DNA of 64,000 bases from an uncultured archaeon (GTDB taxonomy: Archaea; Thermoproteota; Bathyarchaeia; Bathyarchaeales; Bathycorpusculaceae): NCBI GenBank assembly GCA_963782915.1, contig CAWALK010000022.1, positions 192,001 through 256,000 of the forward strand. The letters are read 5' to 3'. A model generated the notes under the pieces. The model was not told the origin of the DNA. It did no database searches and saw only the letters and a program-made list of their open reading frames with translations. Shown in pieces: positions 5,072 to 53,144 of the stretch. The first letter of the stretch is position 1; every line of letters begins with the position of its first letter. Position numbers and translations under genes: made by a program.

Positions 5072-5273
5072 CTTTTCTCTTGTTGATTTTCCAAAAAGTA
5101 CCCTAAGTTAGAATATAAATTGGATGAACTTCTAGTGCATAACCCTTCTACGTTTGTTGGAGCACCAACCAACACCTTCTTAATAATTTGTTAATCCATC
5201 GTCTCGGCTGGGCAGGTGCAAAGTTTTTACTAAACTAGTCCTTGCCCGAAAAAAATTGGAGAAAAGAAAAAAA

Positions 5274-7829
5274 TTGAAAACTCTAAACAACAAAATCATC
5301 GCAACTCTTATCGCAGTAATTCTAGTATCCTCAATGGCTATCGCAATCGGAAACCTGCCAAATGCTAGCGCACACAACCCTGCTTGGGAAATCCCAACAT
5401 GGTGCTACATGCAGGTTTCACCAAACCCTGTCGGTTTAGGACAACCAGTAGCATTCGTCATTTGGAACACTCGTGTTCCTGACGGAGCGTTAGTGACTAA
5501 TGACATCAGATGGAAAAACTACACTATCGTTCTAACAAAACCTGATAACACAACCGAAGTTCTCGGTGGATTCAACTCTGACCCCACTGGTTCAACATAC
5601 ACACAATACACACCAAACCAAATCGGTAACTGGACAGCTAAACTAATCTTCCCCGAACAAATCCTCACAACAACAGGTACACTCGCAAACGACGTATTCA
5701 AAGAAAGCACATACACAACCACCTTTACAGTACAGCAAGATGCAATTTCCACCGTAAGCTACCAATATCCATTACCCACAGAATATTGGACTCGTCCAAT
5801 CGAGGGTCAAAACAATGAATGGTTCACAATAGGCTCAAACTGGCTTCGAGGCTCTCAAGTCCAGATCGCACCAAGCGGAACTGGAACTTCTGGCAGAGTT
5901 CAACTAGACGGTATTGCACCAAACAGTGGACACATCATGTGGACAACACCCCTTGAAGACGGCGGAGTAGTCGGTGGAACCAACACCGCTATCGACGGAA
6001 ACGTCTTCTACTCTGGCACACAATACAACCCACGCTTCAATAACGCAATCATCATGGGCGGAAGAATCTACTATTCTGAACCAAAAGAAAACACTGGCAC
6101 AGGCGGCGACGTTGTATGCCGTGACTTACGAACCGGCGAAGAACTTTGGAGACGCAGCGACATTTCAATGTTCTCATTCGGAATGTACTACGCAATGGAA
6201 TACTACAACCAGCACGGAGTAATTCCACCAGGAGTACTATTCACAACATCAGGCAGCACAATAATCGCATACAACCCCCTCAACGGTCACGAGATGGGCT
6301 GGAACCTAACCAACGTTCCAACCGGCTCAATCGCTAACGAAGCAGTCGGTCCATCAGGCGAAATCCTAAGATACCAACTACAAAGCTACGGCACAGGCGC
6401 AAACCAAGTCTACAAAATACAACAATGGAACCTATCCAGAGCATACATCATAAACACTAACCCAACAAACCCAGCAACACTACAAGCAAACGCATCATCA
6501 TTCTATGACTTTAACCAAACAGTAACATACCAAGGCCAACCATTCAAAGTATCAGGCGCAAGCGCACAAGCAGTCATCTACAATGACTTAGTACTCTTCA
6601 GAAACGGCAGCCTACAAACACAAACAAGCGGCAACGCACAACCATACACTTACTTCGCAGTAGACATCAACGCATCACACGCAACACTTGGCAACGTCAT
6701 ATGGATGAAAAACTATGACCAACCAGCCGGCAACCTAACCCTGCTCTCAACAGCAGCAGGCGACGGCGTTTGGACAATGATGTACAAAGAAACATACCAA
6801 TGGATCGGATTCGACATGCACACCGGAGCAAAACTCTGGGACCACGCAGCAATGGACTTCTCTGAACTAGACTACAACCCATATGGCTACTACAGCTCAA
6901 CCACCGGCAACATGCTAACACACGCAATCTACCAGGGCAAACTATACTCAACAGGCTACAGCGGAATGCTCTTCTGCTACGACCTCTACACTGGAAAACT
7001 CCTCTGGAAATATGAAGCTCCAGCAAACATGGAAGTTTTCAAGTACTACACACTACACATCGGCGCAGTCGCAGACGGAAAAGTCTACCTCGGCTCACAC
7101 GAACACTCTGCAAGCACACCACTACTCAAAGGCAACCTAGTAAGATGCGTCAACGCAACAGACGGAACTGAAATTTGGACTCTACCCGGATGGGCAGCAG
7201 CATACAGTCCAGTAGTTGCAGACGGCTTCCTAGCATACGCCAACCTATACGACAACCAAGTTTACGTCGTCGGTAAAGGTCCAAGCGAAACCACAGTCGA
7301 AATCGAAGACAACGTTATCCAAAGCGGCAGCAGTGTAATGATCACAGGTACAGTAACAGACATCGCTTCAGGCACCACACAGACTGAACAAGCAGCACGT
7401 TTCCCCAACGGCGTCCCAGCAGTTTCAGATGCAAGCATGGGTCAATACATGGCATACGTCTACGAACAAAAACCGCTCCCAACTAACGTAACCGGTGTCC
7501 CAGTGACACTGAGCGTTGTTGACGCAAACGGCAACTACAGAACCATCGGACAAACTACCACTAACGACGGATTCTTCAGCTTAAGCTGGAAACCAGACGT
7601 TGAAGGTGACTTCCAAGTCTACGCTTCATTCGGCGGATCTGAATCATACTGGCCATCACATGCAATAACAGCATTCACCGTTGACTCTGCAGCAGCAACA
7701 CCAGCACCAACACAAACACCAGCAACACCAATATCTGAGCAATACTTCGTCCCAGCAATCGCAGGTCTACTCGTTGCAATCATCGTGGTCGGTCTATTGA
7801 CCATCATGATGCTCAAGAAGCACCCATAA
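5274..7829 (+). CDS. large membrane-anchored PQQ-like beta-propeller surface protein (paralog 1)
   Basis: TTG start after GGAG SD; signal peptide; YPLPTEYWTRPI; DLRTGEELW/YDLYTGKLLW blades; Thr/Pro linker, C-terminal TM + KKHP. Confidence 0.88.
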   Translation: MKTLNNKIIATLIAVILVSSMAIAIGNLPNASAHNPAWEIPTWCYMQVSPNPVGLGQPVAFVIWNTRVPDGALVTNDIRWKNYTIVLTKPDNTTEVLGGFNSDPTGSTYTQYTPNQIGNWTAKLIFPEQILTTTGTLANDVFKESTYTTTFTVQQDAISTVSYQYPLPTEYWTRPIEGQNNEWFTIGSNWLRGSQVQIAPSGTGTSGRVQLDGIAPNSGHIMWTTPLEDGGVVGGTNTAIDGNVFYSGTQYNPRFNNAIIMGGRIYYSEPKENTGTGGDVVCRDLRTGEELWRRSDISMFSFGMYYAMEYYNQHGVIPPGVLFTTSGSTIIAYNPLNGHEMGWNLTNVPTGSIANEAVGPSGEILRYQLQSYGTGANQVYKIQQWNLSRAYIINTNPTNPATLQANASSFYDFNQTVTYQGQPFKVSGASAQAVIYNDLVLFRNGSLQTQTSGNAQPYTYFAVDINASHATLGNVIWMKNYDQPAGNLTLLSTAAGDGVWTMMYKETYQWIGFDMHTGAKLWDHAAMDFSELDYNPYGYYSSTTGNMLTHAIYQGKLYSTGYSGMLFCYDLYTGKLLWKYEAPANMEVFKYYTLHIGAVADGKVYLGSHEHSASTPLLKGNLVRCVNATDGTEIWTLPGWAAAYSPVVADGFLAYANLYDNQVYVVGKGPSETTVEIEDNVIQSGSSVMITGTVTDIASGTTQTEQAARFPNGVPAVSDASMGQYMAYVYEQKPLPTNVTGVPVTLSVVDANGNYRTIGQTTTNDGFFSLSWKPDVEGDFQVYASFGGSESYWPSHAITAFTVDSAAATPAPTQTPATPISEQYFVPAIAGLLVAIIVVGLLTIMMLKKHP

Positions 7830-7884
7830 ATAACAAACATAAAAACAAAACTTTCCCACCCTTTTTTAGTTTAAATGGTACGTC

Positions 7885-8000
7885 AACTGGGGCTGAGAAG
7901 GCGACTGGTTACGATTTACGATGTTTGCAATCATCGTGGATCTAATTTGCAGTTGTGTTCTACTCTCCTTAATGGTCCAGTCGCCTCAGCAAACCCAGTT
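7885..8000 (+). ncRNA. BHB-flanked intron-like sRNA, copy 1 (predicted excised RNA 7898-7992, 95 nt)
   Basis: AACUGGG|GCUG|AGA|AGGCGACUGG pairs with CCAGUCGCCU|CAGC|AAA|CCCAGUU; 11-bp internal hairpin 7913-7942; CUCUCCUU anti-SD. Confidence 0.85.
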
Positions 8001-8065
8001 AACAGTGCCAAATTTTAGTTATGCCAAGCGACGATTTATTTAATTAGCTTTAGATTTGAAGCCGT

Positions 8066-9022
8066 TTAGAAGGTTGAGAGGAATTCTCTACGGAGTGGCC
8101 ATACAGGAAATAATCTGGAAACAGATATCTCCCAATTAGTTAGGTTATTTATTGCCAGAATCTGCTCCTTGAAACCCACAAATTGGTCAATATCTCTAAT
8201 CATCAAGCTCGCTATGCAATCAAATTTGCCGCTAGTTTTATGAATAAAGTTAATGTCAGGAGATTGAGAAATGGCTTCTACACTCCTGCTGAGGTTATCT
8301 TGAGAGAATGATAATTTGAAGAGAGCAAAAGCCCTGTACCCAATTTTTGAGGGGTTGATTTGAATTACTGGTTTTATGTCTTTATTGCGCTTGAGTTTTC
8401 CGTATCTTCTAATAACGGTATCTGTTGAGATGCCGAGTTCTTTACTGATATTGCAAAATGGGGTTCGCCCATTTGTTACCAATTTTTCAATTATGAATTT
8501 GTCAATATCATCAATTTCGATACGATTGATTTCTTTGTCTGTGCTTTGATCATTTTCTCCAGCAACTGCGTTAGCTAGTACAGATAGATTATCTGGGTTA
8601 TTACACATTCCAAGCCAAACTTGAGCTTCTACCTCTAGGACATAGGGTAATTGCTTGATGGATTGTTTAGTTTGCTCTATCTCCTGCATTGTTTTTACGG
8701 TGAATACCGCGCTAAGGTTTGGATTAACTCCTTCAGGATAAACTTCAATCACGTTGGCTGCATCGTTGAGAAGCTTGATAACATAATCTGCCTTGTGTAG
8801 TTGAGTGTAAATGTTGAAGGTTGCGACAAAATTGCTGTTGTAACAGGCGCAACTGTTTTGGATGGTTGCTCCAACGATTATGCCTTGTTTTTTCATTTGT
8901 TTGTATCTGTTAGCGATGACTTCTTTGGATACATTGCTTTGTTGGGCGATGGCTGTGAAGCTTTTCCGTCCATCCTTTAGCAGTTCTTTTAGGATTGTTG
9001 CGTTAATGCGGTCGATCTTCAA
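8066..9022 (-). CDS. Lrp/AsnC family regulator with two tandem HTH-RAM units
   Basis: IDRINATILKELLKDGRKSF and IDDIDKFIIEKLVTNGRTPF..ISKELGIS. Confidence 0.9.
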   Translation of the reverse strand: MKIDRINATILKELLKDGRKSFTAIAQQSNVSKEVIANRYKQMKKQGIIVGATIQNSCACYNSNFVATFNIYTQLHKADYVIKLLNDAANVIEVYPEGVNPNLSAVFTVKTMQEIEQTKQSIKQLPYVLEVEAQVWLGMCNNPDNLSVLANAVAGENDQSTDKEINRIEIDDIDKFIIEKLVTNGRTPFCNISKELGISTDTVIRRYGKLKRNKDIKPVIQINPSKIGYRAFALFKLSFSQDNLSRSVEAISQSPDINFIHKTSGKFDCIASLMIRDIDQFVGFKEQILAINNLTNWEISVSRLFPVWPLRREFLSTF

Positions 9023-9148
9023 TTATGGTTGCTTCCGATTGTTTGCTTTCTGTTAATGATTGGTTTGAATATCATAAATTGCTTTCGGAAATAATGAAAA
9101 TTCGCAACTGAATTCTTTAACTCTTTCCATTTTTATAGGTATGTTAGT

Positions 9149-9164
9149 CGAAAAAACTATATAA
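9149..9164 (+). promoter_or_regulatory. candidate BRE-TATA promoter upstream of BHB sRNA copy 2
   Basis: CGAAAAAA-CTATATAA about 45 nt before the element. Confidence 0.5.
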
Positions 9165-9209
9165 CAAATTAGTAGAAAAATATGGCAAAACGATAGATTA
9201 AGATAAAAC

Positions 9210-9312
9210 GGGCTGAATAGGCGCTGGTAAGTATCACGATATTGCCTGCCCGGTGTTTCGTGGAGAGCTTTTGCATTTAGCTCTTACTCCTTATCCAGAG
9301 CCTCAGCAAACC
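9210..9312 (+). ncRNA. BHB-flanked intron-like sRNA, copy 2, stand-alone (predicted excised RNA 9218-9309, 92 nt)
   Basis: GG|GCUG|AAU|AGGCGCUGG with CCAGAGCCU|CAGC|AAA|CC; CACGA/UCGUG hairpin; UUUUGCAU..CUUACUCCUUA segment. Confidence 0.75.
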
Positions 9313-9485
9313 ACAAAAACGTAGTTACTATTAACCGGCCGCTGATACCACATTATCAATCCTTAGCGGATGCACATGCCTCTGAGGATAGCTTGGTTTT
9401 GCTTAGGTTTTACGAATTACCCGCACAGAGATGCTTAGACAGCAATTAAAATATACCAAGTAAACATTGACTTGCTGGGTAAGCT

Positions 9486-9678
9486 ATGAAGCGAAAGAGC
9501 CTGCGAAAATTCAGCATAAAAAATAACCTAACTGCATTTTTAGGTTTGTCCCTTGTTTCGCTTGTTGTATTCGGGTTCATAGCACTCAACGGGCAAGATT
9601 CAAGAGGCGGTGGCTGCGTTTTCTGGTAGTCAACCCCAACTCGACGGTATCACCTTTATGATTATGAAAATGACTTAG
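9486..9678 (+). pseudogene. internally deleted membrane-bound SpoIIE/RsbU-type PP2C phosphatase remnant
   Basis: N-terminal TM (MKRKSLRKFSIKNNLTAFLGLSLVSLVVFGFIAL) joined out of frame to KIQEAVAAFSGSQPQLDGITFMIMKMT*, resembling the SpoIIE C-terminal PQ.DDIT motif; directly upstream of RsbW/RsbV. Confidence 0.65.
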
Positions 9679-9687
9679 AAGGCTTGA

Positions 9688-10125
9688 ATGATGAAAGACA
9701 GCGATGGATGGTTTGAACTTAAAATAGAAAGTGACCTAAAGAACCTAGAAATTGTAGCGGATTTCATAACTAAAACCATGCGTGAATCAGGCGCACAAAA
9801 TGAAAAAGACATATTCGATGTCCAATTAGCCGTAGACGAAGCCTTAACAAACATAATCGAACACGCTTACGCCGGCATTAAAGGCGGCAAAATCACAGTA
9901 CAATGCCGACTATCAGAATCAAAAAAAGAGTTCATAGTTAAACTTAAAGACTCAGGCAAACCCTTTGATCCCCAAACTGTCGCTTCTCCAGACACCGACG
10001 CCGAATTAGAGGAACGCAAAGTCGGCGGATTGGGAATTTACTTCATGAAACAGCTTATGCAAACCGTTAAATACGCCATCAACGACAAGGAAAACGAATT
10101 AACGATGGCTAAGATTCTTAGCTGA
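9688..10125 (+). CDS. RsbW/SpoIIAB-like Ser/Thr kinase (HATPase_c_2)
   Basis: LAVDEALTNIIEHAY, DSGKPFDP, GGLGIYFMKQLM. Confidence 0.92.
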   Translation: MMKDSDGWFELKIESDLKNLEIVADFITKTMRESGAQNEKDIFDVQLAVDEALTNIIEHAYAGIKGGKITVQCRLSESKKEFIVKLKDSGKPFDPQTVASPDTDAELEERKVGGLGIYFMKQLMQTVKYAINDKENELTMAKILS

Positions 10126-10135
10126 GGGTTTAACG

Positions 10136-10471
10136 ATGAGTGTTGAAGTTAAAACTGTGGGCGACGTAAAAATTATTTGTATCATGAAACGATTTGATGC
10201 TTATACTGCAAACCAGGTTGAGGCAGAATTAACAAGACTTATTGCGGAAGGTTCTCGCAAGATAGTGTGCGATTTCTCACAAACAGAGTACCTTGCCAGT
10301 GCTGGACTTCGCGTGCTCATAACTGCCACCAGAAGCCTCCAGAAAGTAGGCGGCAAAATTGTGCTCTGCTCAGTCAAGCCCTATGTGCTCGAAGTCTTCG
10401 AAATATCTGGCTTAAAGAAGATCTTCAAAATATTCGATTCCACCGACGCCGCCCTACAAGAACTAAAATAA
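10136..10471 (+). CDS. STAS domain anti-anti-sigma factor (RsbV/SpoIIAA-like)
   Basis: DFSQTEYLASAGLRVL, V.EVFEISGL. Confidence 0.92.
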   Translation: MSVEVKTVGDVKIICIMKRFDAYTANQVEAELTRLIAEGSRKIVCDFSQTEYLASAGLRVLITATRSLQKVGGKIVLCSVKPYVLEVFEISGLKKIFKIFDSTDAALQELK

Positions 10472-10483
10472 ACGGTGCTTAAG

Positions 10484-12208
10484 ATGAAATTAACCAGTTC
10501 CGATCTTCTCTTAAAATATCTTGAGAACGAAGGCGTCGAATACATATTCGGTGTCCCCGGACTCAGCTTAATCCCCCTTTTCGAGGCATGCAATCGAAAC
10601 CCAAAGATCAAGCCGATCCTCGCCAAACACGAGGAAGGAGCCGCATTCATGGCAGACGGCTATGCCCGAGTCAAGGGAACCTTAGGCGTATGCTTTGCTA
10701 CCTCAGGTCCAGGCGCAACTAACCTCATAACTGGAGTTGCAACCTCCTATCTCGATAACATCCCAGTTATGGTATTAACTGGTCAAGTTGCAACTTCGTT
10801 ATCAGGCGGCGGCGCTTTTCAGGATTCCACCAAAAACGGTGTCGACTCGGTAGCCATGTTTGACCCAATTACAAAGTACAGCACTATGATTCTTTCTAAG
10901 TATAGAGCTCCTGAAGAGATCCGTGAAGCCCTCAGAATGGCATTAACGGGCAAAAAAGGCCCCGTACATTTGAGTATGCCCAAAGACGTGATGGCTGAAG
11001 AGATAGAATCCGAACTACCAACATCTACCTCGTATAGGCCGCCTGCTGAGTACTTTGATCGCCGCATGGTGATTGAAGCCGCAGAGCAACTCGTAAACGC
11101 ACAAAACCCTGTAATCTTGGTGGGCAGCGGCGCAGTGGCATCTGGGGCTTGTGAAGAAATCCGTGATTTAGCTGAAACTCTGCGCATCCCAGTTGCGACT
11201 TCACCCAAAGCAAAAGGAGCCTTCCCAGAAGATCATCCACTATCCTTGGGTGTGCTTGGTTTCTGCGGTTCTCCTGTTGCGGAAAACTGTCTAACTTCCG
11301 GTCAAACCGATGTGCTATTAGTTATTGGGTCTAGCCTAAACCAGATGACAACTATGTCATGGGACCCACGCTTAGCGCCAACCAAATGTTTAATCCATAT
11401 AAACATTGACGCGACCGAAATCGGCAGAAACTACAAAGTCGATATTCCATTGGTTGGCGATGCCCGAACAATTATTAACGAAATCTCTTTCCGCATCATG
11501 AAATACATTGTGGATGAGCAAAGCCCAAAATGTGACGGAGCGGCAAGGGTTGCAGCTATACGACAGAAGGTCGGGATATGCGTATCACCCGAAAAGATGG
11601 AATCCAATAATATTCCAGTTTTGCCTCAACGCATGGTCAAGGAATTAGAACGTGCCTTGCCAGAAGACGCCATTCTATTCGTTGACACAGGAAATCCCAT
11701 GTGCTGGGCTATTCACCATATGCAAGTCCGAAGACCAGACTCGTTCATCTGTCCCTTCGGTCTTTTAACCATGGGTTACTCTACTGCCGCAGCTATAGGC
11801 GGAAAATTAGCTGCACCAAACCGTCCAGTTGTATCTCTAGTTGGGGATGGTTGCTTCTTGATGAATGGCATGGAAGTAGCTACAGCCGTCAGCTATGATA
11901 TACCAGTCGTCTGGATAGTGCAGAATAACGCAAAACTTGGTTTGGTCCATGAGTTCCAGAGGTTGAACTTTGGCGAAAAAACAGTTGTTACCAGATTCAA
12001 GCCGATTGACGCTGCCAAAGTGGCTGAAGGATTAGGTGCCAAAGGGTACCATATCGAGCGGCCAGGTGAACTTGAAGCATTATTGCCTAAAGTTATTGAA
12101 GAGAATAAGCCGGCTGTTATCGACTGCAGAATTGCTGATGAGGTACCGCCGCTTGCTCCATTTGTTCAGGGCCTCAAGAACTTCTCCAGCCGCCTAGAAA
12201 ATATGTAA
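10484..12208 (+). CDS. thiamine-pyrophosphate enzyme, acetolactate synthase large subunit-like
   Basis: IFGVPG, HEEGAAFMADGYAR, TSGPGATN, GDGCFLMNG..N motif. Confidence 0.92.
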   Translation: MKLTSSDLLLKYLENEGVEYIFGVPGLSLIPLFEACNRNPKIKPILAKHEEGAAFMADGYARVKGTLGVCFATSGPGATNLITGVATSYLDNIPVMVLTGQVATSLSGGGAFQDSTKNGVDSVAMFDPITKYSTMILSKYRAPEEIREALRMALTGKKGPVHLSMPKDVMAEEIESELPTSTSYRPPAEYFDRRMVIEAAEQLVNAQNPVILVGSGAVASGACEEIRDLAETLRIPVATSPKAKGAFPEDHPLSLGVLGFCGSPVAENCLTSGQTDVLLVIGSSLNQMTTMSWDPRLAPTKCLIHINIDATEIGRNYKVDIPLVGDARTIINEISFRIMKYIVDEQSPKCDGAARVAAIRQKVGICVSPEKMESNNIPVLPQRMVKELERALPEDAILFVDTGNPMCWAIHHMQVRRPDSFICPFGLLTMGYSTAAAIGGKLAAPNRPVVSLVGDGCFLMNGMEVATAVSYDIPVVWIVQNNAKLGLVHEFQRLNFGEKTVVTRFKPIDAAKVAEGLGAKGYHIERPGELEALLPKVIEENKPAVIDCRIADEVPPLAPFVQGLKNFSSRLENM

Positions 12209-12491
12209 GCCCTTCCGACTTCCTTGGGCTATTTTTTTTATTTCTCTATTTGATTGAAGGGATCAGAGAAACTTCTGGAGAGAATTGATGATCTCAAAAT
12301 AGTATCGTCACATTGAAATTAGAATAGTTGGCGAAGTTCTTAGGTATTGTTCTAATCATTTAGTTTTGTAAAGTAACCGCCAGTTTTTGGTAATGGATGT
12401 TTTGTAGTGCTGTGGCTGTTGGTAACAAACGCATTGTTTTAAATATCAACCGCTGAAAAGTAAGGAAGCACAAACAAGGAGATAAGAAAAA

Positions 12492-15103
12492 TTGAATAAA
12501 AAAATCTTTGCAATTTTGCTTTTTTTGGCTTTTAGCATTAGGAACATTTGCAGCTATACCAAATGAAGTAAACGTACAAGCAGCAACAGCAGCAACACAA
12601 AAGACCTATTCAATTACTGATGCAATCCCCGACAAAATCGGCCTTGGCGAAACAACACTTCTCAAAACCGGTATTACACAAGCACTAAACGCAGCCGAAG
12701 ATGGTTGGAGCGGCCTCACAATCACAGTCACAAAACCAGACGGCACAAACACAACATTGGGACCATTCAAGTCAGACTCGACAGGTTCAACCTTCACCCA
12801 ATACACACCAGACGCAGTAGGCACCTACACTATAACAAGCAACTTCCCACAACAAGAAATGCCAGTAAACACAGACGACGCAGAAAGAGGCATAACTATT
12901 CCTAAGGGAACCATCATGCTTGCAAGCAGTGCATCATGCACATTAGTCGTAACAAATGAGCCTTCACCAGTATATCCTGGTCATTCCCTTCCAACTGAAT
13001 ACTGGAGTCGCCCAATCGACCCACAGCTTAGAGAATGGTTCAGCATCTCAGGTAACTGGGTTCAACGACCAGACAATTCATTAGCACTCTTCAATGACGA
13101 TGCACCAGACACAGCACACGTACTATGGGCTCAAGATTTAACAACCGGCGGTATGTCAGGCGGTCTCATCAGGCCCTGGTCAAGTTCACTGCAGGAATGA
13201 ACTCAGGCGACGCATACGAAGGCAAATTCTCCAACTCAGTCATACTCAACGGAAAACTCTATCTACAACACTGGACCCGCACCAGGCTTTTACGGTTCAC
13301 TTGGCATCAATGTAACGTCAAAGCAGTTGACCTACACACAGGCGAGGAACTCTGGGTTAAAAAACGACACACTTCCTATCCTTTGGTCAAGAATTCTACT
13401 GGAACAGCTACAACGTAGATGGTGTATACAGTTATCTTTGACAACATCACCACTTATGATCCACCATTCTTCATCCCAAAAACCACTTGGACTGCATACG
13501 ACCCCTTTGAATGGCTTCTATGGTGCTTCACTTTCGAGAATGTTCCCTCAGGAACAGCAAATCTATGGCCCAAGCGGCGAAATCCTGATCTATCAAATTG
13601 ACTACGTAAACAACCGACTGATGCTTTGGAACTCAACCCTCTGCGGATCTACAAAATGCAGCGCCAGATTCACCTGATCTACGGTAGTTGGGCAAGCAAC
13701 GTCATGATGAAAACATTCGATGCATCAAATCCAAAATGCTACTCTTGGAACGTCTCTATCCCAGCGGGCTTGAAACAGAAGCACATACATTCGGGGCATC
13801 AATCGCGAAGATCTACGATGACAGAATATGTCTGCATTATTCTTCAACCAAACAATGGTAAGAGTATGGGCAATAAACACTGAAGACTTAACAAAAACAT
13901 CCACATCAACTCTCAACTGCTATTCGATCAAACCTGGGCTGCACCAACCGAATGGCTTGCATGGCTCAAACACTCTACATTACACAGGCGCAACAAATTA
14001 TGTATCACAGACAGTACATACGGCGACGGTGTCATAGCAGTATGGGACAAAGAATTAAGAACCCACTATGGCTTTAGCATCACAACTGGTAAATACCTCT
14101 GGGCAACTGGCTCTGAAATCTATTCCGATGCTTACGGTTGGGGTAATGCAGAACACACTTGGTACTTTGCTTATGGCAAATTGTACTCAGTGGGTGTCGG
14201 CGGTATCCTCTATGCTTATGACCTTGCAAACAGGATGACACAGCATGGACATACAATCTAACTGACGCCCAACTGGAGAACCCGTCACAGGCAACAACTG
14301 GTGGGGCTGGATTGACCTAATTGCTGATGGCAAAATCTACATCGGCACACTTGAACACTCAGCTGAGAACCCACTACCAAGAGGCGCACCCTACATCGCA
14401 GTTAACGCAACCGACGGCAGCTGAAATCTTGCCGTGTCAACGGTATGTTCCGTGAAACCAGATGGGGCGGTAACGGCATCATCGCTGATAGCATCATCGC
14501 AACCATGGACACATACGACCAACGCGTATATGCAATCGGCAAAGGCCCAACACAACTAACAATTGACGTACCAGGTATCGGCGTAGCATCAGGACAAAGC
14601 ATCATGATACAAGGCACAGTTAACCGACACATCACCAGGCACCTCAGACTTACGCATTAACCTCAAGATTCCCCAACGGTGTCCCTGCAGTATCTGACGA
14701 CAGCCAAAGCCAATGGATGCTCTATGTATACAAACAATTTGAACGCCCAACAAACACTACTGGCGTTGAAGTAATCTTAACTGCTTTGGACCCTAATGGT
14801 AACTATATCACCCTCGGCTCGACTACAACGGATGCAAGCGGCACCTTCGGATACAACTGGGCAACACCTGACATTCCAGGCAAGTACACGATCACTGCCA
14901 TATTCGCTGGCTCCTCGGCATACTATTCTTCAAATGCACAAACATACGCTATCATAGAGTCTGCACCTGAACCCACCGCTGAACCAACAAAAACACCAAC
15001 GGCAATCTCAGAAACCTACTTTGTACCTGCAATTGGGGGTATATTCATTGCAATAGTAGTAGGTTTCGTGTTGATGCTATTAGTACTCAGGAAACGACCA
15101 TAA
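12492..15103 (+). CDS. PQQ-like beta-propeller surface protein (paralog 2), many frameshifts (probable sequencing errors)
   Basis: TTG after AAGGAG; LPTEYWSRPI; YDQRVYAIGKGP; RFPNGVPAVSD; C-terminal YFVPAIGG TM + RKRP. Confidence 0.85.
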
Positions 15104-15163
15104 GGTGAAAACGAAATGAAAAACACCCTTTCCCTTCCTTTTTTTAGTTTCAATTTATGTTTC

Positions 15164-15281
15164 AGGCTGGGGCTGAGTGGGCTTCTGGACTACTGTTTTA
15201 CGCGGTGTTTGCGATCATCGTGTTTGCATTTTTCTTCTCTCCTTAAGAATAAATGTCTAGGCGCCTCAGTAAACCCAGTTT
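15164..15281 (+). ncRNA. BHB-flanked intron-like sRNA, copy 3 (predicted excised RNA 15178-15272, 95 nt)
   Basis: AGGCUGGG|GCUG|AGU|GGGCUUCUGGAC with GUCUAGGCGCCU|CAGU|AAA|CCCAGUUU; multiple G-U pairs. Confidence 0.85.
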
Positions 15282-15317
15282 AAACCTTTTTTCGTTTTCT
15301 TTTTCTTGAAATAATTA

Positions 15318-15392
15318 GGCGCCGGGGTTAAGGACTCGAACCCCTGTGGGCATGAAGCCTCTGGCTATCTTGCCATTTCTGGCTCTTGCCCT
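15318..15392 (-). pseudogene. degenerate 3' fragment of tRNA-Ser(CGA) including part of the intron (att-site remnant)
   Basis: Matches 19121-19195; 25 nt exact (15368-15392 = 19171-19195); T-arm mutated. Confidence 0.85.
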
Positions 15393-15672
15393 TACGATAG
15401 GTTTTTTTTAATGTGGGTTTTTTGCATGCGCTACTTTGGTACTTTATGGCTTAATTTTAGCAACGAGAATTGTAAAAGGCAAAACTGATTTAGCAAAGAA
15501 TGGTTTGTGCCTTATCTTTCGTTTATGAATAAAAATAAGAAAAAATGCTATATTCGTAATCGTTATTCATAATTATACTTAATTTTATGGCAAGTTTTAA
15601 GCATATTTGCAAAACCATAAATACGCAAAGGAAACAAAAAAAGAAGCCATAGACATAGGAGATAAGAAAAAA

Positions 15673-18393
15673 TTGCATGTATTAAAAAAAATTGCAACAA
15701 TAATGTCTGTATTGTTAATTGCTTGTATTGTAACTTCTATATTCGCAGCACCATTGGCAACTGGCCAGGTAACCTTGCCGCCTGGCACACATATTGCGAC
15801 TTATGCAAACATTAACGTGGCACCCAACCCAATCGGCGTTGGACAAACAGTCAACGTAAACTTCTACCTTGCGTCACCATTAATCGACAGTAGCAGGCCA
15901 ACAAACATGACAGTTAAAGTCACTGACCCAAGTGGCAACGTCCAAATGAAAGGTCCATACACCGGCGATACAACTGGCGGAACCTTCTTCAACTTCGTTC
16001 CAGACAAAGTCGGCAACTGGACATTCCAACTGTTCTACGGCGGACAACTCACAGTAGGCAGCTCGGGATTCGGAGGAGGACCACCAACTAACGCCAAACT
16101 CATACAAGACCCCAGCGAAAGTAAAGTCTACACGCTTTTAGTACAAGAAGAACCCATAGTACAAACCGGCTACCCACTGACTCCGCTACCAACAAGCTAC
16201 TGGGAGACACCAGTGTCGGCTCAGAACGTCCAGAACTGGTACAAGATTATGGGCCCCTGGCTAGGACTTGGAACCATCACCTTTGCCTCAACGGGCGCAT
16301 ACAACGTCAGCAGCCTATGTAACCCCTACACGCCATCAGTAACATCCGGACACATCATCTGGACGAAAACATGGGGCGCAGGCGGTGTCGTAGGCGGCAG
16401 CGCAGGCGGAACCGAAGATTCAGGCAGCTACTGGTCAACAAGGCAGTACTGGCCACAGTATGCACCAGTCATCATGAACGGCAAAATGTACTCGACATAC
16501 TACCCAGAAACCACAGGCTACTCAAACGGCATAGTATGCACAGACCTCTACACTGGCGAAACGCTTTGGAAAATCAACACAACCGCTGTCCTTCGATGCG
16601 GAATGACGACACAGTGGAAGACTCCAAACATGTACGGCGTAGTCGGCCCATATATTTGGACTACAGGTAACTTACCCGCTTCAGAAACCGGCGGAAAACT
16701 TATCCAAAGCTCAGGCACTGAAATGGGCATGTTTGGTCCAGCGCAAAAAACAGCATACAACCTGTATTCTGCTGAAACAGGACAATACGTCCTAAGCATC
16801 GTTAACGCTTCGGCCATGACACTTAAAGAAGATTCTCAGGGAGATATAATTGGCTACTATCTTAACAGTACTGTTGGAACAATGAGAATATACGGTAATG
16901 CCCCACAAATGGGCACACAACCTCTGGTTCAAACAGTAAACATCACTGCAGGCAAACCAGTCTTATGCTGCTTCAACTTCACACAGGCACTCGGCAACTC
17001 TTGGGGATGGTCTCCATCACAGAACACCGCAATTGACTTCGGTCTAGGTGTAATGTGGGCGAAGCCAGTACCAACCGAAATCAACGGAAAACCAATCTTC
17101 CCAGCACTCGCTATGGATGCAATCAACCCACTAGGCGGCGACGCAGTAGTACTAACAGGCGGATACACCATCATGCAAGGAGGCGGAGACGAAACATGCG
17201 GTTGGCTAGTAGTAGCTTCCATGGATGACACAACCGGCGATGTCTTGATGTGCAAGAACTTCACATACGCAGACGGCTACCAATCATTACTGCCTTACAC
17301 GAGGACAACCAGCTGCAACGTCGATGGAAACAGAGTGATAGCCAACGTGGTTAACAACAAAATCGACGCCTTCAACATACGCACCGGAGCTAAAGCATGG
17401 TCATCAACCCTCGACACTCCATCAGGCTCTACAAACACCTACGACTCGTTCGGCTTCAAAGCTGCACCAGTAAACGGCAAACTGCTCCTCTTCGGTTTAG
17501 GCGGAGACATCTGGGCATACAACGGTAAAACAGGCGCAGAAGAGTGGTACACCAACACAACCGGCTTAATCGGCGACTCAGGCATCGAAACACCATACGG
17601 TACATGGCCACTATGGGTATTTAGTTCACAAGCCTATACACCAGAAGTCGCATACCTCGCAATCGGTCACGAATACAACCCGCCACTATTCCACGGAGGA
17701 CAACTATTAGCAGTCAACATGACTGACGGCACACTAGTCTGGAGTGAACTAGGCGCCTACATCCGATCAGTAGCAATCGCAAACGGCGTCCTACTATCCC
17801 TAAACGCTTATGACAACCAGATTTACGCATTCAGCAAAGGGCCAACCAAGATAACCATTGACGCACCGAGCATTGGAGTAACAACTGCCACGCCGATACG
17901 CATCACAGGAACCATAACCGACGTTTCAGCAGGCGTTACACAATCAGAAGTAGCTAAGAACTTCCCCAACGGCGTACCCTGCGTATCTGATGCAAGCCAA
18001 AGTAAATTCATGGAACACGTCTACCAAGACCAGCCAGCACCAACCGACACCACAGGCGTTCCAATCACCTTGAGCGTCGTTGACCAAAACGGCAACTACC
18101 GCACAATCGGCGCTACTATGAGTACTCCAACCGGTTCATTTGGTATCACTTGGACACCGGATATTCAAGGGGACTATCAAATCTACGCAAGCTTTGAAGG
18201 CTCCAATTCGTACTGGCCAACATCAGCCGGAACATCCTTCTACGCAGGCGAAGCCCCAACAGCAGCCCCAACCCAAGTAGCAGCACAGACAGTTGACAAC
18301 ACTATGCTCATCGTTGCTATCGGCACTGCAATCATCATTGCTATCGCGATTGTAGGAGCAGTTCTACTGCTCGCTATAAGAAAACGCCCATAA
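15673..18393 (+). CDS. PQQ-like beta-propeller surface protein (paralog 3)
   Basis: TTG after AGGAG; PLPTSYWETPV; DLYTGETLW; YDNQIYAFSKGP; NFPNGVPCVSD; TM + RKRP. Confidence 0.88.
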   Translation: MHVLKKIATIMSVLLIACIVTSIFAAPLATGQVTLPPGTHIATYANINVAPNPIGVGQTVNVNFYLASPLIDSSRPTNMTVKVTDPSGNVQMKGPYTGDTTGGTFFNFVPDKVGNWTFQLFYGGQLTVGSSGFGGGPPTNAKLIQDPSESKVYTLLVQEEPIVQTGYPLTPLPTSYWETPVSAQNVQNWYKIMGPWLGLGTITFASTGAYNVSSLCNPYTPSVTSGHIIWTKTWGAGGVVGGSAGGTEDSGSYWSTRQYWPQYAPVIMNGKMYSTYYPETTGYSNGIVCTDLYTGETLWKINTTAVLRCGMTTQWKTPNMYGVVGPYIWTTGNLPASETGGKLIQSSGTEMGMFGPAQKTAYNLYSAETGQYVLSIVNASAMTLKEDSQGDIIGYYLNSTVGTMRIYGNAPQMGTQPLVQTVNITAGKPVLCCFNFTQALGNSWGWSPSQNTAIDFGLGVMWAKPVPTEINGKPIFPALAMDAINPLGGDAVVLTGGYTIMQGGGDETCGWLVVASMDDTTGDVLMCKNFTYADGYQSLLPYTRTTSCNVDGNRVIANVVNNKIDAFNIRTGAKAWSSTLDTPSGSTNTYDSFGFKAAPVNGKLLLFGLGGDIWAYNGKTGAEEWYTNTTGLIGDSGIETPYGTWPLWVFSSQAYTPEVAYLAIGHEYNPPLFHGGQLLAVNMTDGTLVWSELGAYIRSVAIANGVLLSLNAYDNQIYAFSKGPTKITIDAPSIGVTTATPIRITGTITDVSAGVTQSEVAKNFPNGVPCVSDASQSKFMEHVYQDQPAPTDTTGVPITLSVVDQNGNYRTIGATMSTPTGSFGITWTPDIQGDYQIYASFEGSNSYWPTSAGTSFYAGEAPTAAPTQVAAQTVDNTMLIVAIGTAIIIAIAIVGAVLLLAIRKRP

Positions 18394-19119: not shown

Positions 19120-19244
19120 TGGCGCCGGGGAAGGGACTCGAACCCCTGCGAGCACGAAGCCCACCAGCTGTCTTGCCATTTCTGGCTCTTGCCCTCGTTT
19201 GTTTGATCTCGAGGCTGGCGCGATAACCACTCCGCCACCCCGGC
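19120..19244 (-). tRNA. tRNA-Ser(CGA) with 38-nt intron at 37/38 (19170-19207), CCA encoded
   Basis: GCCGGGG/CCCCGGC acceptor, CCAGC/GCTGG anticodon stem, CT-CGA-G loop, long variable arm, GTTCGAGTCC. Confidence 0.93.
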
Positions 19245-19445: not shown

Positions 19446-19660
19446 TATAGGGGAGGGGGTATATGTTTGAGGTAGGTAGGTCGGGTCGTGGCTTTCGAGC
19501 CCAGAACTGCTTAGCTGCAAAACAGATGCCTGATACTCTAACAATTCAGCGTATAACTGTACAAATCCCACAGCTCCAAACCAGCATACACCCGCTTCCG
19601 CTTTATTTTTGTCTGCATTCATTGAGCCTATAAATAGAGGGGGTAGAGGAAAAAACGCAA
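19446..19660 (+). repeat. G-string intergenic repeat modules
   Basis: TATAGGGGAGGGGGT..GAGGTAGGTAGGTC (cf. 53005-53045) and TTGAGCCTATAAATAGAGGGGG. Confidence 0.7.
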
Positions 19661-23771: not shown

Positions 23772-23920
23772 TATTCCACCGCTGTGTAATATCCGTGAAG
23801 CTTAGTCTATATTAACGTTCGTTGCAAGTGGGATTGGTTTTTCAGGTTGCTGTAGAGAAGCTTTTGGATTATAATCAAGCCGGTGGGCTTTGGGGTCGCT
23901 TGCGACTTTTTTCTTTATCC

Positions 23921-24121
23921 CCCTTATTTATAGGCTCAACAATTGCAGGGTGGCGGCTTTGGGTGTTGCACGTTTGTTAGCACGCTTTTCTGGCGGCTCA
24001 GAGTTTGTGGAGTTTGGCGTTGGGTTTTTGTGCAGTTGTTTTCGGGTAGGTGTGTCTGGTTGATGCTTTCGTATACAGAAAACGTTTTGTTGCTCTGTGA
24101 GACCTCCCCTCCCCTTATATA
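23921..24121 (-). repeat. G-string intergenic repeat modules (reverse orientation)
   Basis: rc TTGTTGAGCCTATAAATAAGGG; rc TATATAAGGGGAGGGGAGGT..AGAGCAACAAAA; TTGATGCTTTCGTATACAGAAAACG shared with 1776-1800. Confidence 0.75.
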
Positions 24122-29760: not shown

Positions 29761-30006
29761 GTTGGATTCGGGTTGACTGCATTACTAATTAATGCGAGAT
29801 TTTATGATTTTTTCATAGATTGCGAATATTATTAATGTAAAAGAATTTACCTAATTTAGCCAAAAATTTGGTTTTTAGTGGTTTTTTAGGAACTAATATT
29901 GGATAACCGTTTGGCGTTTGGCTGGTAGTCGGAACCTACTACAGTGCTACCTTAAAAACAGATTGAACTAAAAAGAGTAGTTTATAAAATTAGGAAGAGA
30001 AAAAAA

Positions 30007-32778
30007 ATGGACTTTATCAATAAAAAAACAGTATCTATTCTATTCGCAGCTCTATTAGCAATTTCAATGATAACTACAATGGTACAAATTCAAAGCAGCA
30101 CTGCACATACACCTCCCTATCAGATTACAACTTACGCCAAAGTTACAATTCAACCCGATATTATCGGCGTAGGCCAAGCAGCATTAGGCTACGCTTTCCT
30201 TGGAAATGCACCCCTCCCCGGTTCAACAATGAACAATGCCTACAGATTCCACGACTACACCGTTACAATTACGGACCCTAATGGCGAAGTCAAAACACTT
30301 CACTGGGACACCGTTGATGACACAACCGGATGCCAGATGTTCAAATATACCCCTTCAGTAGTAGGCCAATACAACGTTACCTTCACCTTCGGCGGAATGA
30401 CACTAACATCAGCTGACACAGGCACAGCCGCGAGCATTGGCGACGTTTACCTGCCAAGCACCTCAACATGCACCTTCTACGCACAAGAAGAATCACTATC
30501 GAACTTCCCTGACAGTTATCCACTGCCAACTGAATACTGGACTAGACCAATCTATGGCGAAAACCCAGGTTGGTACACAATCTCATCCAACTGGCTAGGA
30601 ACTGGCTCACCTGTCATTTCAGCAACAGGCTCAGGCCTAATTACTGGCACAGGAACACAATCAGGAATTCAGAGATATCCCGGTGACGCCGTCGGTTCTA
30701 TGACTAGCCACGTCATGTGGACTAAACCAGTACAATCAGGCGGTGTTGTCGGTGGCGACACATACGAAATAAAAGGCGATACCTACTTTGAAGGCTCAGC
30801 ATACATCAATAGATTCCAGAACCCAATCATCGTAGCTGGGATGCTAGTTTACAAAGAACCCCTTTCCTTCTCAAGTGCAGGCGGCGGAGACACAGTCTGC
30901 GTCGATTTACGCACTAGTGAAGAGTTATGGCGAAGCCCAACAATGCCTGCAATCTCATTTGCCTACGTTCCTGATTTTCAGAACCCCAACCAACACGGTG
31001 TCTTCCCACCACTACTAGTCACATCCAACTGGGCACAAGTCTACGACGCTTACACAGGCTATCCAATGTTCAATGTTACTGGCTACAGCGCAGTCGGTGG
31101 TACCATAGTAATGGGCTCAAACGGTGAACATATAAAATACACATTCTTCAACAACGGCACCGCATCAAAACCAGACTGGTACTTATGCAAATGGAACGCA
31201 ACACTGATGTGGGGCGGAATCGGATACCACCCTAACGAAATTGGCAGCACACCCGCAATTCAAACCGAAACAACCACAACATATGCATTGGCTAACACAA
31301 CAACTTACGTCAACAACATAAAAACAATAACAAGCCAAAATGTCTCCACCTCAACAACTGCAGTTATCGCAAACCAGGGACGCCGCTACAACTGGTTAGA
31401 CTCTACAACACAGAACGAATCAATATCCTGGAAGAACCAAGCACAATACAACAACCTGCAATTTACAGTGGTAGCAGCCTACTACAACAACATCATGATT
31501 TGCAGAAACGGCTCATATCCAACTCTAACAGGTGTAACACAGAACGTGTCTGGTACCGTATCATTGACTAGTGCAAACTGGACATACTTCGCTATCGACC
31601 TTAACGAAAGCCACGGTACATTCGGCCAAATTCTTTGGACAAGCCCAACATTCACCTCTCTGCAAGACAAGACGATCACATTTGCTGGATCAGACCCAAC
31701 AGTCAACGTTTTCGTAGAAGGAAACAAAGAAACAACCACTTTCACAGGTTACAGTATGACAACAGGCCAAAAGCTCTGGACAAGTGTTGGCGAAACAACT
31801 TTAGACTACTTCGGTAATCCCGCATTCCCATACGCAAGTGCCCAAGAAGCATACGGCAAACTCTACAGCCTCAACTACGGTGGTGTACTATTCTGCTATG
31901 ACCTAACGAACGGTGACTTGCTTTGGACCTACGGAAACGGAGGCGCAGGTAACAGCACCTCAAGTGGTCTACAAACACACGGCTACTATCCAGGATTCAT
32001 AATGGCTGTAGGCAACGACGCAGTATACATAGGCGCAACACAGCACACCATCACTACACCAATTCCAAAAGGCAACTATATGCGAGCAGTTAACGCAACA
32101 ACAGGCGAAGAAATCTGGACAATCTCAGACTACACTGGCAACTTCTTCACCCTCTCCTTCGCTATGGCTGATGGTTACTGCACGTACTTCAATGGCTACG
32201 ACAACCTAATCTACTCAGTAGGCAAAGGACCAACATCATTAACCGTCACAGCACCAGACCTATCTGCAGCATCAGGCCAACCAGTGGTAATACGTGGAAC
32301 AGTCTATGATGTCTCAGCAGGTACAACACAAGATGAGCTAGTGGCACGCTTCGCAAACGGCGTTCCAGTCAGCTCTGACGCAAGCATGCCTGAATGGATG
32401 GGTTACCTCTACCAAGACAAACCACTACCGACTAACTTCACAGGTGTTGAAGTAGCACTCAACGTGCTCGACTCTAATGGCAACTACCGCACAATCGGCG
32501 CAACAACAACCGACGCTACAGGCGCATACAGCTACGTATGGCAACCAGACATTTCAGGTGAATACACAGTCGTTGCAACATTCGCAGGTACAGCTGGCTA
32601 CTGGCCATCAACAGCTACAACAGCATTCAACGTCATGAACGCAGAAACAACAGTAACACCAACCCAGACACCAGTATCTATGTCTGATGCCTACTTTGTA
32701 CCAGCAGTCATTGGCATTATCTTTGCAATCGTTATAGTCGGGGTCGCAATAGTATTCGTCCTAAAGAAACACCCATAA
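30007..32778 (+). CDS. PQQ-like beta-propeller surface protein (paralog 4)
   Basis: Signal peptide; YPLPTEYWTRPI; DLRTSEELW; YDNLIYSVGKGP; YFVPAVIG TM + KKHP. Confidence 0.88.
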   Translation: MDFINKKTVSILFAALLAISMITTMVQIQSSTAHTPPYQITTYAKVTIQPDIIGVGQAALGYAFLGNAPLPGSTMNNAYRFHDYTVTITDPNGEVKTLHWDTVDDTTGCQMFKYTPSVVGQYNVTFTFGGMTLTSADTGTAASIGDVYLPSTSTCTFYAQEESLSNFPDSYPLPTEYWTRPIYGENPGWYTISSNWLGTGSPVISATGSGLITGTGTQSGIQRYPGDAVGSMTSHVMWTKPVQSGGVVGGDTYEIKGDTYFEGSAYINRFQNPIIVAGMLVYKEPLSFSSAGGGDTVCVDLRTSEELWRSPTMPAISFAYVPDFQNPNQHGVFPPLLVTSNWAQVYDAYTGYPMFNVTGYSAVGGTIVMGSNGEHIKYTFFNNGTASKPDWYLCKWNATLMWGGIGYHPNEIGSTPAIQTETTTTYALANTTTYVNNIKTITSQNVSTSTTAVIANQGRRYNWLDSTTQNESISWKNQAQYNNLQFTVVAAYYNNIMICRNGSYPTLTGVTQNVSGTVSLTSANWTYFAIDLNESHGTFGQILWTSPTFTSLQDKTITFAGSDPTVNVFVEGNKETTTFTGYSMTTGQKLWTSVGETTLDYFGNPAFPYASAQEAYGKLYSLNYGGVLFCYDLTNGDLLWTYGNGGAGNSTSSGLQTHGYYPGFIMAVGNDAVYIGATQHTITTPIPKGNYMRAVNATTGEEIWTISDYTGNFFTLSFAMADGYCTYFNGYDNLIYSVGKGPTSLTVTAPDLSAASGQPVVIRGTVYDVSAGTTQDELVARFANGVPVSSDASMPEWMGYLYQDKPLPTNFTGVEVALNVLDSNGNYRTIGATTTDATGAYSYVWQPDISGEYTVVATFAGTAGYWPSTATTAFNVMNAETTVTPTQTPVSMSDAYFVPAVIGIIFAIVIVGVAIVFVLKKHP

Positions 32779-32836: not shown

Positions 32837-32949
32837 CTGGGGCTGAGCAGGCTTCTGGACTGCTGTTTACGCGGTGTTTGCAATCATCGTGTTTTGCATT
32901 TTTCTTACCTCCTTAAGGAATAAATGTCTAGACGCCTCAGCAAACCCAG
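32837..32949 (+). ncRNA. BHB-flanked intron-like sRNA, copy 4 (predicted excised RNA 32848-32943, 96 nt)
   Basis: CUGGG|GCUG|AGC|AGGCUUCUGGAC with GUCUAGACGCCU|CAGC|AAA|CCCAG; ACCUCCUUA anti-SD. Confidence 0.85.
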
Positions 32950-33252: not shown

Positions 33253-33327
33253 TGAAGCCGATGATGCATGAAGAGCCGTCTGAATTGTGAAGAATAGTTT
33301 AATGGGGAATTATAAACTGAGGCTTCA
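33253..33327 (+). ncRNA. box C/D guide sRNA
   Basis: Terminal stem TGAAGCC/GGCTTCA; C ATGATGC 33261; D' CTGA 33280; C' GTGAAGA 33287; D CTGA 33317; D' guide GAAGAGCCG. Confidence 0.78.
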
Positions 33328-40158: not shown

Positions 40159-40520
40159 AGAATTAAGAGACCGTCAAACCGCAAGTACCAGAAATTGGTA
40201 AACAAACTTATTCTTTCTTTTTCTTTCATTTTAGAATGGTTATTGGAATTTCCTACTTTTTGTCCTCGCTGGCCGATGTCGATGAGGAAGAGGGTTGCTC
40301 AAAATCAGCTATGAAATTTATTTGCTTGTGTGTGAGATTCCTATCCATCGTTGTTTACGCTAAAGTAAAAATTGAGATCGAGTGACCTCCTTTGCAGATA
40401 CCTCCCCTCCCTTATAGTAGTAGATTAAAATCTTCGCTGTTCTGGTTGGGGTTTATTGCACAATCAACTTGCAACGCAAACCCGACGCTGAAGCTGGAAA
40501 GTAATCGCTATCATACTTCT

Positions 40521-40562
40521 TTGGTTGTTGTTGACACTAAGAGGGGTCCATAGCAACAACCA
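40521..40562 (+). repeat. intergenic hairpin repeat copy c
   Basis: TTGGTTGTTGTTGACACTAAGAGGGGTCCATAGCAACAACCA. Confidence 0.8.
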
Positions 40563-53045: not shown

Positions 53046-53144
53046 CTTCCAATAATGTTTCAGTTCTGCTTGCAGAAACCGCCACAACCAACCAGCAACC
53101 CAAACCAAACCCAGAACCCAAAAAACAATCGGCAACATCAGCCC

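Follow-up and report, generated by a model that had tools for sequence, protein, structure and literature searches.

The 64,000-nucleotide (nt) window analysed here, positions 192001-256000 of contig C22 in the genome of an uncultured archaeon of the Bathyarchaeia (G000; 3.28 Mb in 25 contigs), carries four copies of a structured RNA element among the genes of a surface-protein family. An earlier note had drawn attention to positions 15221-15246 as antisense to the Shine-Dalgarno (SD) sequence and start codon of these surface-protein paralogs, and that site falls inside copy 3 of an element of ~105-125 nt that is closed by a canonical bulge-helix-bulge (BHB). Judged by comparative sequence evidence, the elements form an undescribed structured-RNA family of the Bathyarchaeia, present in Bathycorpusculum and its relatives, and the combination of a BHB frame with an anti-start segment points to a new kind of excised regulatory RNA. 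We consider it an evenly balanced proposition that the RNA is excised at the BHB, perhaps as a circle, and masks the translation starts of the paralogs in trans.

In such a mechanism the plus strand would be transcribed either by read-through of the paralog terminator or, in stand-alone copies, from a promoter of the element's own. The tRNA-splicing endonuclease would cut both bulges, RtcB would probably circularise the excised piece of ~95 nt, and the exposed anti-SD core would seed pairing in trans with paralog start regions and block 30S binding, the outcome being a family-wide damping or cross-repression of surface-protein synthesis. The genome encodes both enzymes, with two matches to the splicing-endonuclease model PF01974 (C3:14491-14736 and C3:35259-35510) and one to the RtcB model PF01139 (C24:160224-161537). 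The mutual exclusion and dosage control that the earlier note proposed are pure inference. The most elaborate version, a circular antisense network in which each expressed paralog sheds a BHB-excised circle that occludes the ribosome-landing sites of its 20-30 sisters and so makes their expression exclusive or rationed, we regard as unlikely.

A family of RNA elements framed by a bulge-helix-bulge

At its two ends the element forms CUGGG-GCUG-[A(G/A)N]-AGGC... paired with ...GCCU-CAGC-[AAA]-CCCAG, which gives the BHB layout of a helix, a 3-nt bulge, a helix of 4 base pairs, a 3-nt bulge on the opposite strand and a second outer helix, the 5′ bulge being A(G/A)N and the 3′ bulge AAA. GGGCUGA and GCCUCAG(C)AAACC are invariant in the alignment of the ten own-genome copies from which our covariance model was built, and four stem pairs still pair despite changes on both sides. 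Among 39 elements from ~30 genomes of the same genus (labelled g1, family f1), the strict hBHBh' geometry holds in 32, the central helix GCUG/CAGC in 37 and the 3′ bulge AAA likewise in 37; in g16, a genus of another family (f7), 23 of 31 elements pass a looser hBHBh' test. The interior consists of variable hairpins and a conserved UUUGCAU...CUUUUCUCCUAA tract. In many relatives, read directly, UUUGCAUU forms the loop of a covarying hairpin (GAGCA/UGCUC, GCGCA/UGCGU, GAGAG/CUCUC) and a CU tract comes after it.

All four window copies lie on the plus strand. Copy 1 (7887-7998, type A, 105.6 bits with the covariance model) starts 58 nt past the stop of paralog 1 and has the outer helix CUGGG/CCCAG, the central helix GCUG/CAGC, bulges AGA and AAA, an inner stem, and a hairpin ACGAUG-UUUGCAAU-CAUCGU; its anti-start-region segment, a motif match, is UUUGCAGUUGUGUUCUACUCUCCUUA at 7946-7971 (+). 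Copy 2 (9209-9312, type B) stands alone, without an upstream paralog, with a TATA-like CTATATAA ~50 nt upstream; here the UUUGCAUUU motif lies in the loop of a GAGAGCU/AGCUCUU hairpin and the segment, again a motif match, occupies 9270-9293 (+). Copy 3 (15167-15278, type A) follows the broken paralog 2, and its segment UUUGCAUUUUUCUUCUCUCCUUA at 15223-15245 (+) spans the site at 15221-15246. Copy 4 (32837-32949, type A) follows the paralog at 30007-32778, and its segment at 32893-32915 (+) contains ACCUCCU.

Searches with the covariance model gave 22 hits in the genome of the window. This total includes the duplicates on contig C5, which repeats part of C22 and was dropped from all other own-genome counts; C5 (e.g., C5:20463-31764) matches window positions 7884-15283, with the same three elements and one paralog 98.7% identical at the protein level, and stems from a redundant assembly or from another strain in the bin. 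Hits were found in 29 of the 36 congeneric genomes, with up to 22 copies each, and in both g16 genomes, and a single genome holds up to 24 elements. Across a sample of 150 genomes from 63 genera of the order, the family occurs in 19 of 35 genomes of f1, 18 of 35 of f7 and one of 25 of f6, in eight genera altogether (Bathycorpusculum and kin).

The paralogs form a family of 20-30 members with a signal peptide, a PQQ-like beta-propeller, an Ig-like domain and a C-terminal membrane anchor ending in KKHP or RKRP; no C-terminal sorting-signal model of NCBIfam matched them. Copies 1, 3 and 4 begin ~55-60 nt past the stop of a large paralog open reading frame (ORF), and the same linkage recurs elsewhere. 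Eight of the 15 distinct own-genome elements lie within 200 nt 3′ of a BLAST-defined paralog and one more lies behind a paralog-like C-terminal tail, the other six having no upstream paralog. In G052, the closed g16 genome, an element lies 41-59 nt past the stop at 14 of the 15 paralog loci fetched. In genus g23, none of the five readable elements (of eight loci) has an upstream paralog; our regular expression found no element in three of these eight loci and in one of 12 loci in genus g26.

No Rfam family reaches its gathering threshold over the elements, at E≤10 none overlaps copies 1, 2 or 4, and neither ARAGORN nor Rfam places a tRNA at the element sites. A small protein gene on either strand was considered and rejected by eye: the reading frame of the conserved nucleotides differs among copy 1, copy 3 and the C15 copy, and ORFs on the minus strand span just 3-15 codons in frames that are not kept among copies. 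Directly 3′ of several paralog stops (including C24:140597 and C23:32366), an SD-like AAGGUGA and an AUG open a frame reading MK..LSLPF(F/L), which runs through a C-rich/T-run tract into the element; in copy 3 this frame is a 55-amino-acid ORF (15116-15283, +) that covers the element. It was not taken as a gene because its frames vary among copies. The family was not described in the literature that we searched on BHB RNAs, archaeal circular RNAs and small RNAs (sRNAs), splicing endonucleases, Bathyarchaeota and Bathycorpusculum; the circular-RNA lists of PMC7714728 and PMC12918454 (23S circularisation) may include related circles.

Complementarity to paralog start regions and its co-variation

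The pyrimidine-rich segment of the element is a true reverse complement of the region common to the beta-propeller paralogs that runs from the SD through an A-rich spacer and the start codon into the next codon. The paralog consensus reads UA(A)GGAGA(A/U)AAGAAAAA-AUG/UUG-(C/A)A and is retained by paralogs of only ~33% amino-acid identity. In the window it is represented on the plus strand by GGAGAAAAGAAAAAAA-UUG at 5258-5279 (paralog 1, gene 5274-7829, 851 amino acids), AAGGAGAUAAGAAAAA-UUG at 12476-12497 (paralog 2, gene 12492-15103, with many broken frames), UAGGAGAUAAGAAAAAA-UUG-CAU at 15656-15678 (paralog 3, gene 15673-18393, with no element after it) and UUAGGAAGAGAAAAAAA-AUG at 29986-30012 (the paralog at 30007-32778).

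What the earlier note had read from the window was borne out. Its claim that all four copies share UUUGCA-N-CUCCUUA agrees with four window matches to TTTGCA-N(8-16)-CTCCTTA, all on the plus strand, where 0.04 were expected and none of 100 shuffles reached four. The pairings that it listed were recovered, namely 16/17 with 12476-12492 for both copy 3 (15228-15244) and copy 4 (32898-32914), 14/15 with 15657-15671 for copy 4, and 14/19 Watson-Crick pairs with 5258-5276 for copy 1, and the ACCUCCU of copy 4 is identical to the seven 3′-terminal bases of the 16S rRNA encoded in this genome (...GGAUCACCUCCU), the 16S mimicry that the note had suggested. Targets starting MQ(I/T/K), predicted to lie beyond the window, exist at C11:48375-51161, C12:199036-201657 and C24:57386-58897. 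Paralog 2, which lies in many frames here and in two pieces on C5, is a pseudogene or suffers from assembly frameshifts, and nonetheless it has the best-matching start region for copies 3 and 4.

At the scale of the genome, we compared the segments with 4120 crudely called start regions (-25 to +13), 21 of them from N-terminally intact paralogs; the start of paralog 2 was mis-called and is hence outside this set. None of the 4120 reaches 15/17 with copy 4. With copy 3 none reaches 16/17 and three reach 15/17, while ten of the 38 that reach at least 13/17 come from the 21 intact paralogs; with copy 1, two reach 14/19, one being its own paralog. SD-led start regions of this genome in general lack such A-richness, with A at 0.35-0.43 for each spacer position (n=1158). 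Scanning both strands of the genome with the 21-23 nt consensus (≤4 mismatches, C5 dropped) returned 17 sites, comprising five elements in antisense, five paralog start regions, one probable N-terminus of a broken paralog, two other gene starts with hydrophobic, signal-peptide-like N-termini and four sites without a called gene start. Exact 21-23-mers occur at the paralog start C11:51155-51175 and, in antisense, in the element at C24:140452-140474.

Comparison with genus g16 adds a contrast in which both partners have changed together, GAAGGAAUGAAAAAAUGAAAA against its complement. Paralog starts in g16 read UUGAAGGAAUGAAAAA-AUG-AAAAA (variants GAAGGUGAAAAA and AUUGAGGAAUGAAC), and the elements carry the complement of these starts, GGUUUUUUCAUUUUUUUCAUUCCUUCAA (variants UUCACCUUCAA and UUAUCCUCAAUA). 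A pattern scan of G052 gave nine hits, five of them antisense elements, three paralog starts and one other, compared with two for a control pattern. Duplex energies follow the same division: g1 elements pair with cognate starts at a mean of -14.2 kcal/mol (per-element best -24.0) vs. -9.3 (-12.9) across genera, and g16 elements at -17.8 (-25.7) vs. -13.1 (-18.6), a cognate advantage of ~5 kcal/mol in the mean and 7-11 for the best pair per element. Homologues retain the segment, and between two families of the order it has co-varied with its targets. Genus g26 was tried as a third contrast and set aside, being of the same family as g1, with start regions and elements that resemble those of g1 and add nothing independent. 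Because the start region is unusual, its genome sites are few and both partners changed together in g16, the complementarity is evidently more than a low-complexity accident.

The earlier note had asked whether paralog leaders rank better than those of other SD-led genes, and here the answer is divided. Duplex energies were computed with RNAduplex for the segment of each of ten elements against the 4120 start regions, with ten dinucleotide shuffles as controls. Paralogs are enriched for five of the ten elements, but window copies 1 and 2 fail. The area under the curve (AUC) against other SD-led genes and the number of paralogs in the top 20 are 0.86 and six for C24a, 0.87 and four for C15, 0.80 and four for copy 3, 0.69 and two for copy 4, and 0.71 and two for C24b; C23 (0.79), C2 (0.64), C20 (0.58) and copy 2 (0.48) have one paralog each in the top 20 and copy 1 (0.56) has none. 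Shuffles of copy 3 gave an AUC of 0.56 (maximum 0.75) with a mean of 0.4 and a maximum of two paralogs in the top 20, and those of copy 4 an AUC of 0.37 (maximum 0.53) with none. The paralog signal is strong at the level of the family and modest for the four window copies taken singly.

Strand, transcription and competing explanations

The single-strandedness that the earlier note required of the segment is predicted for its anti-SD core in homologues, with a mean P(unpaired) of 0.85 in g1 (97% of 34 scored elements above 0.5) and 0.91 in g16 (93% of 28); the anti-start part averages 0.60 in g1. The functional strand is partly settled in favour of the plus strand. In g1 stems G-U pairs outnumber A-C 24 to 9 and the plus strand folds better in 29 of 39 elements, and two pairs in the inner hairpin of copies 3 and 4 are G-U on the plus strand but would be A-C mismatches on the minus strand. 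An invariant promoter-like block, ...TTGTCAGAAGA(T/G)GCACTTATTCCATATGTTTAAAAAT..., with TTTAAAAA, is common to four g23 species and lies ~57 nt upstream on the plus strand, and stand-alone copies have promoter-like boxes of their own. At two g23 loci (L175 and L177), TTGTCAGAAG(A/T)(T/G)GCACTTA(T/C)TCCA...TTTAAA stands upstream of the element and again ~60 nt downstream of it, before the next transcription unit, and looks like a shared operator and promoter.

For elements behind paralogs, the proposal that the RNA is made from the transcript of the paralog is uncertain: the element is co-oriented and lies 50-60 nt past the stop, but a terminator-like T-run intervenes. In the case of copy 1 this is the C-rich tract and T-run CUUUCCCACCCUUUUUUAGUUU at 7855-7876 (+), between the paralog 1 stop and the element, and such a block also precedes copies 3 and 4. 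The tract is most likely the terminator of the paralog, because an equivalent C-rich/T-run tract ends the paralog genes in congeners G027 and G025, which have no covariance-model hit. A hairpin, CUCCC-U7-GGGAG, holds the T-run in its loop in g16 and g26 (G052 loci L145-L158, in the interval from paralog stop to element), and the 3′ arm of this hairpin, GGGAGUAAAAGUAUG, is an SD-plus-AUG look-alike just upstream of the element.

Several points weigh against masking in trans. The T-run between gene and element resembles the normal terminator of the paralog, so that production of the element from the paralog transcript would need read-through. The target sets depend on crude gene calls, several top-ranked "targets" are unrelated genes, and C20:389950, among the top targets, is just another element read on its opposite strand. 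For copies 3 and 4 the best energies (-24.9 and -24.4 kcal/mol) are barely past the best of their shuffles (-23.4 and -22.5), and copies 1, 2, C2 and C20 have little or no paralog enrichment (AUC 0.48-0.64). The co-variation is essentially one evolutionary contrast (f1 vs. f7), and elements of g23 show no clear anti-start part. In g16, the anti-start part is predicted to be mostly paired (P(unpaired) 0.21) with an internal AAAAAUGAAAAA mimic, and the strand is ambiguous, with A-C 25 vs. G-U 16 and better folding of the plus strand in only nine of 31 elements. Lastly, G027 and G025 carry many paralogs with purine/A-rich start regions and no detected element, and hence this style of start region is independent of the element.

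The earlier note had also offered a cis alternative, in which the segment, lying in the 3′ untranslated region (UTR), pairs back onto the SD and start of the mRNA that carries it, as a closed loop or self-masking, until it is cut out at the BHB. The tight, co-oriented linkage of an element to its paralog would suit it, as would the 16/17 pairing of copy 3 with the start region of its own gene, the presence of copy 1's own leader among just two of 4120 start regions at ≥14/19, and the consideration that even -10 to -17 kcal/mol could matter. Outside the BHB, moreover, the g23 leader after the promoter-like block holds an SD-like AAAGGAGAA (AAAGGAG) that complements the UUCUCCUUU of the element. 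The alternative is not favoured, and we judge it quite unlikely: own-gene pairing is unremarkable (ranks 469, 62, 1351, 1252 and 1628 of 4120), the own gene in G052 comes anywhere between 2nd and 15th of 15 (permutation p 0.77), the terminator-like T-run separates gene and element, and six of 15 own-genome elements and the five readable g23 elements have no upstream paralog to act on. The lack of own-gene preference and the existence of elements without an upstream paralog thus speak for a trans effect or, at a minimum, for one without gene specificity. A split into producers and targets was tried and rejected, as the six paralogs that have an element and the 15 that lack one do not differ in how well their start regions pair (Mann-Whitney p 0.68).

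The reverse assignment, in which the minus strand is functional and presents a copy of the start region, a decoy to which 30S or a start-region-binding regulator would bind, or else encodes a tiny translated ORF, is rather improbable. Read directly, that strand has a textbook SD, a spacer of 8-9 nt and an AUG, the symmetric BHB forms on either strand, and A/T-rich boxes ~20 nt past the 3′ end of several copies, seen by eye, are possible minus-strand TATA boxes. The two genera disagree on the folding evidence, since in g16 there are 25 A-C against 16 G-U and 22 of the 31 elements fold better as the minus strand, whereas in g1 the excess of G-U over A-C (24 to 9), the better folding of the plus strand (29 of 39) and the two inner-hairpin G-U pairs of copies 3 and 4 all go the other way. 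The remaining evidence is also unfavourable, as the minus-strand ORFs of 3-15 codons are broken in frame by indels (by eye, in copies 3 and 4, the relatives L008 and L010 and the G052 elements L145 and L150), the conserved g23 promoter block lies on the plus strand, and a separate convergent promoter would be required behind every paralog.

A DNA-level or selfish element without RNA function, such as a palindrome resembling a repetitive extragenic palindrome (REP) or a miniature inverted-repeat transposable element (MITE), an attC-like site or inversion repeats, would share with our element its many copies, intergenic position just 3′ of genes, imperfect palindromy and conserved ends, and paralogs without a detected element in some congeners are what one would see with a dispensable or mobile sequence. 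Judged by the sequence, geometry and placement of the copies, we nevertheless find it very unlikely. The own-genome copies show their age in a mean column identity of 61% and in compensatory changes of the stem, unlike a recent transposition burst, and they are dispersed over at least eight contigs rather than arrayed. Two families of the order preserve the BHB geometry exactly, the element is associated with one gene family, own-gene repeats are too mismatched for recombination, and a by-product would leave the co-variation with start regions unexplained. The last explanation, that any U-rich tract with CUCC matches an SD and A-rich spacer by chance, can appeal to the low complexity of the sequences, the near-shuffle best energies of copies 3 and 4 and the unenriched copies 1 and 2, but it is already disfavoured and scarcely credible to us in view of four motif matches against 0.04 expected, a 21-23-mer consensus nearly confined to elements and paralog starts in two genera, generic start regions that are not A-rich, and cross-genus pairings 5-11 kcal/mol weaker than cognate ones.

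Window context and comparison with known systems

Other features of the window were recorded alongside the elements. A tRNA at 19123-19244 (-) is matched by Rfam and missed by ARAGORN; its anticodon loop is interrupted by a 42-nt insertion, and its variable arm is long. Right after copy 3, at 15325-15359, a 35-nt piece is 83% identical to the 3′ part of this tRNA without matching a tRNA model, and it may be the remnant of an integration site. Outside the element, between copy 4 and the SRP54 gene, 33253-33327 (+) gives a weak C/D-box match (snoR38/sR2, E 0.02, below the gathering score). The SRP54 protein of this genome shares 91-94% identity with its counterparts in 'Candidatus Bathycorpusculum' and other metagenome-assembled Bathyarchaeia. 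Other repeat families are C/A-rich units of ~76-106 nt (CACAACCAACCAGCAACCCAAACC...) and a block of TATAAATA followed by GGGAGG-like runs, in both orientations; together they account for 1854-1959, 2292-2397, 40459-40534 and 53066-53171, as well as 2172-2201, 19614-19643, 52936-52965, 23907-23951 and 57875-57919. At 60138-60253 a 33-nt unit (AAAUGCAAAAUGAAAAUAGUCAA...) is repeated in tandem three to four times.

Besides tRNA introns and rRNA precursors, a couple of mRNAs are known to undergo BHB processing, and we know of no regulatory role for excised BHB circles. The circles made from tRNA introns, archaeal ones as well as the metazoan tRNA intronic circular RNAs (tricRNAs), come from an endonuclease cut at the BHB followed by RtcB-type ligation into a stable circle, a biogenesis that we propose for the element as well; they arise in tRNA genes, whereas the Bathyarchaeia elements are not in tRNAs, and most of them have, to our knowledge, no known target. 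Another parallel is provided by bacterial 3′-UTR-derived, C/U-rich anti-SD sRNAs, which owe their release to RNase E or terminators and have Hfq or ProQ as partners. They too are encoded at the 3′ end of protein genes and have a pyrimidine-rich single-stranded seed that pairs with the SD, the difference being that here release would be by tRNA-splicing endonuclease and in an archaeon.

If masking in trans is true, the splicing endonuclease would gain a role in making regulatory RNAs, and a large surface-protein gene family would come under post-transcriptional control in an uncultivated, globally abundant archaeal lineage. The full circle network, if true, would be the first archaeal case of variant-surface-protein-style control and would for the first time give BHB circles a regulatory task. 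The covariance model, the locus list and the two-genus co-variation stand independently of mechanism.

Within the archaea, sRNA41 of Methanosarcina mazei masks ribosome binding sites (Buddeweg et al., 2017, via PMC5867862) and is likewise a trans-acting archaeal sRNA with a proposed repression of several related mRNAs by such masking. It is a single intergenic sRNA that targets genes of the ACDS operon, with no reported BHB or circle, and is likened here by mechanism only. A structural parallel comes from Haloferax volcanii, where a BHB intron in the 5′ UTR of HVO_1309 is excised as a circle (Schwarz et al., 2020, PMC7714728). Like the element, it is a BHB outside tRNA and rRNA, and it sits in the untranslated region of an mRNA. 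For HVO_1309, the cut by the splicing endonuclease and the recovery of the circle are described, whereas cleavage is predicted here from sequence; HVO_1309 is a single 5′-UTR locus, and no function is reported for its excised RNA. The Bathyarchaeia element, by contrast, is a family of 10-24 copies that lies mostly 3′ of the members of one gene family and carries a conserved antisense segment.

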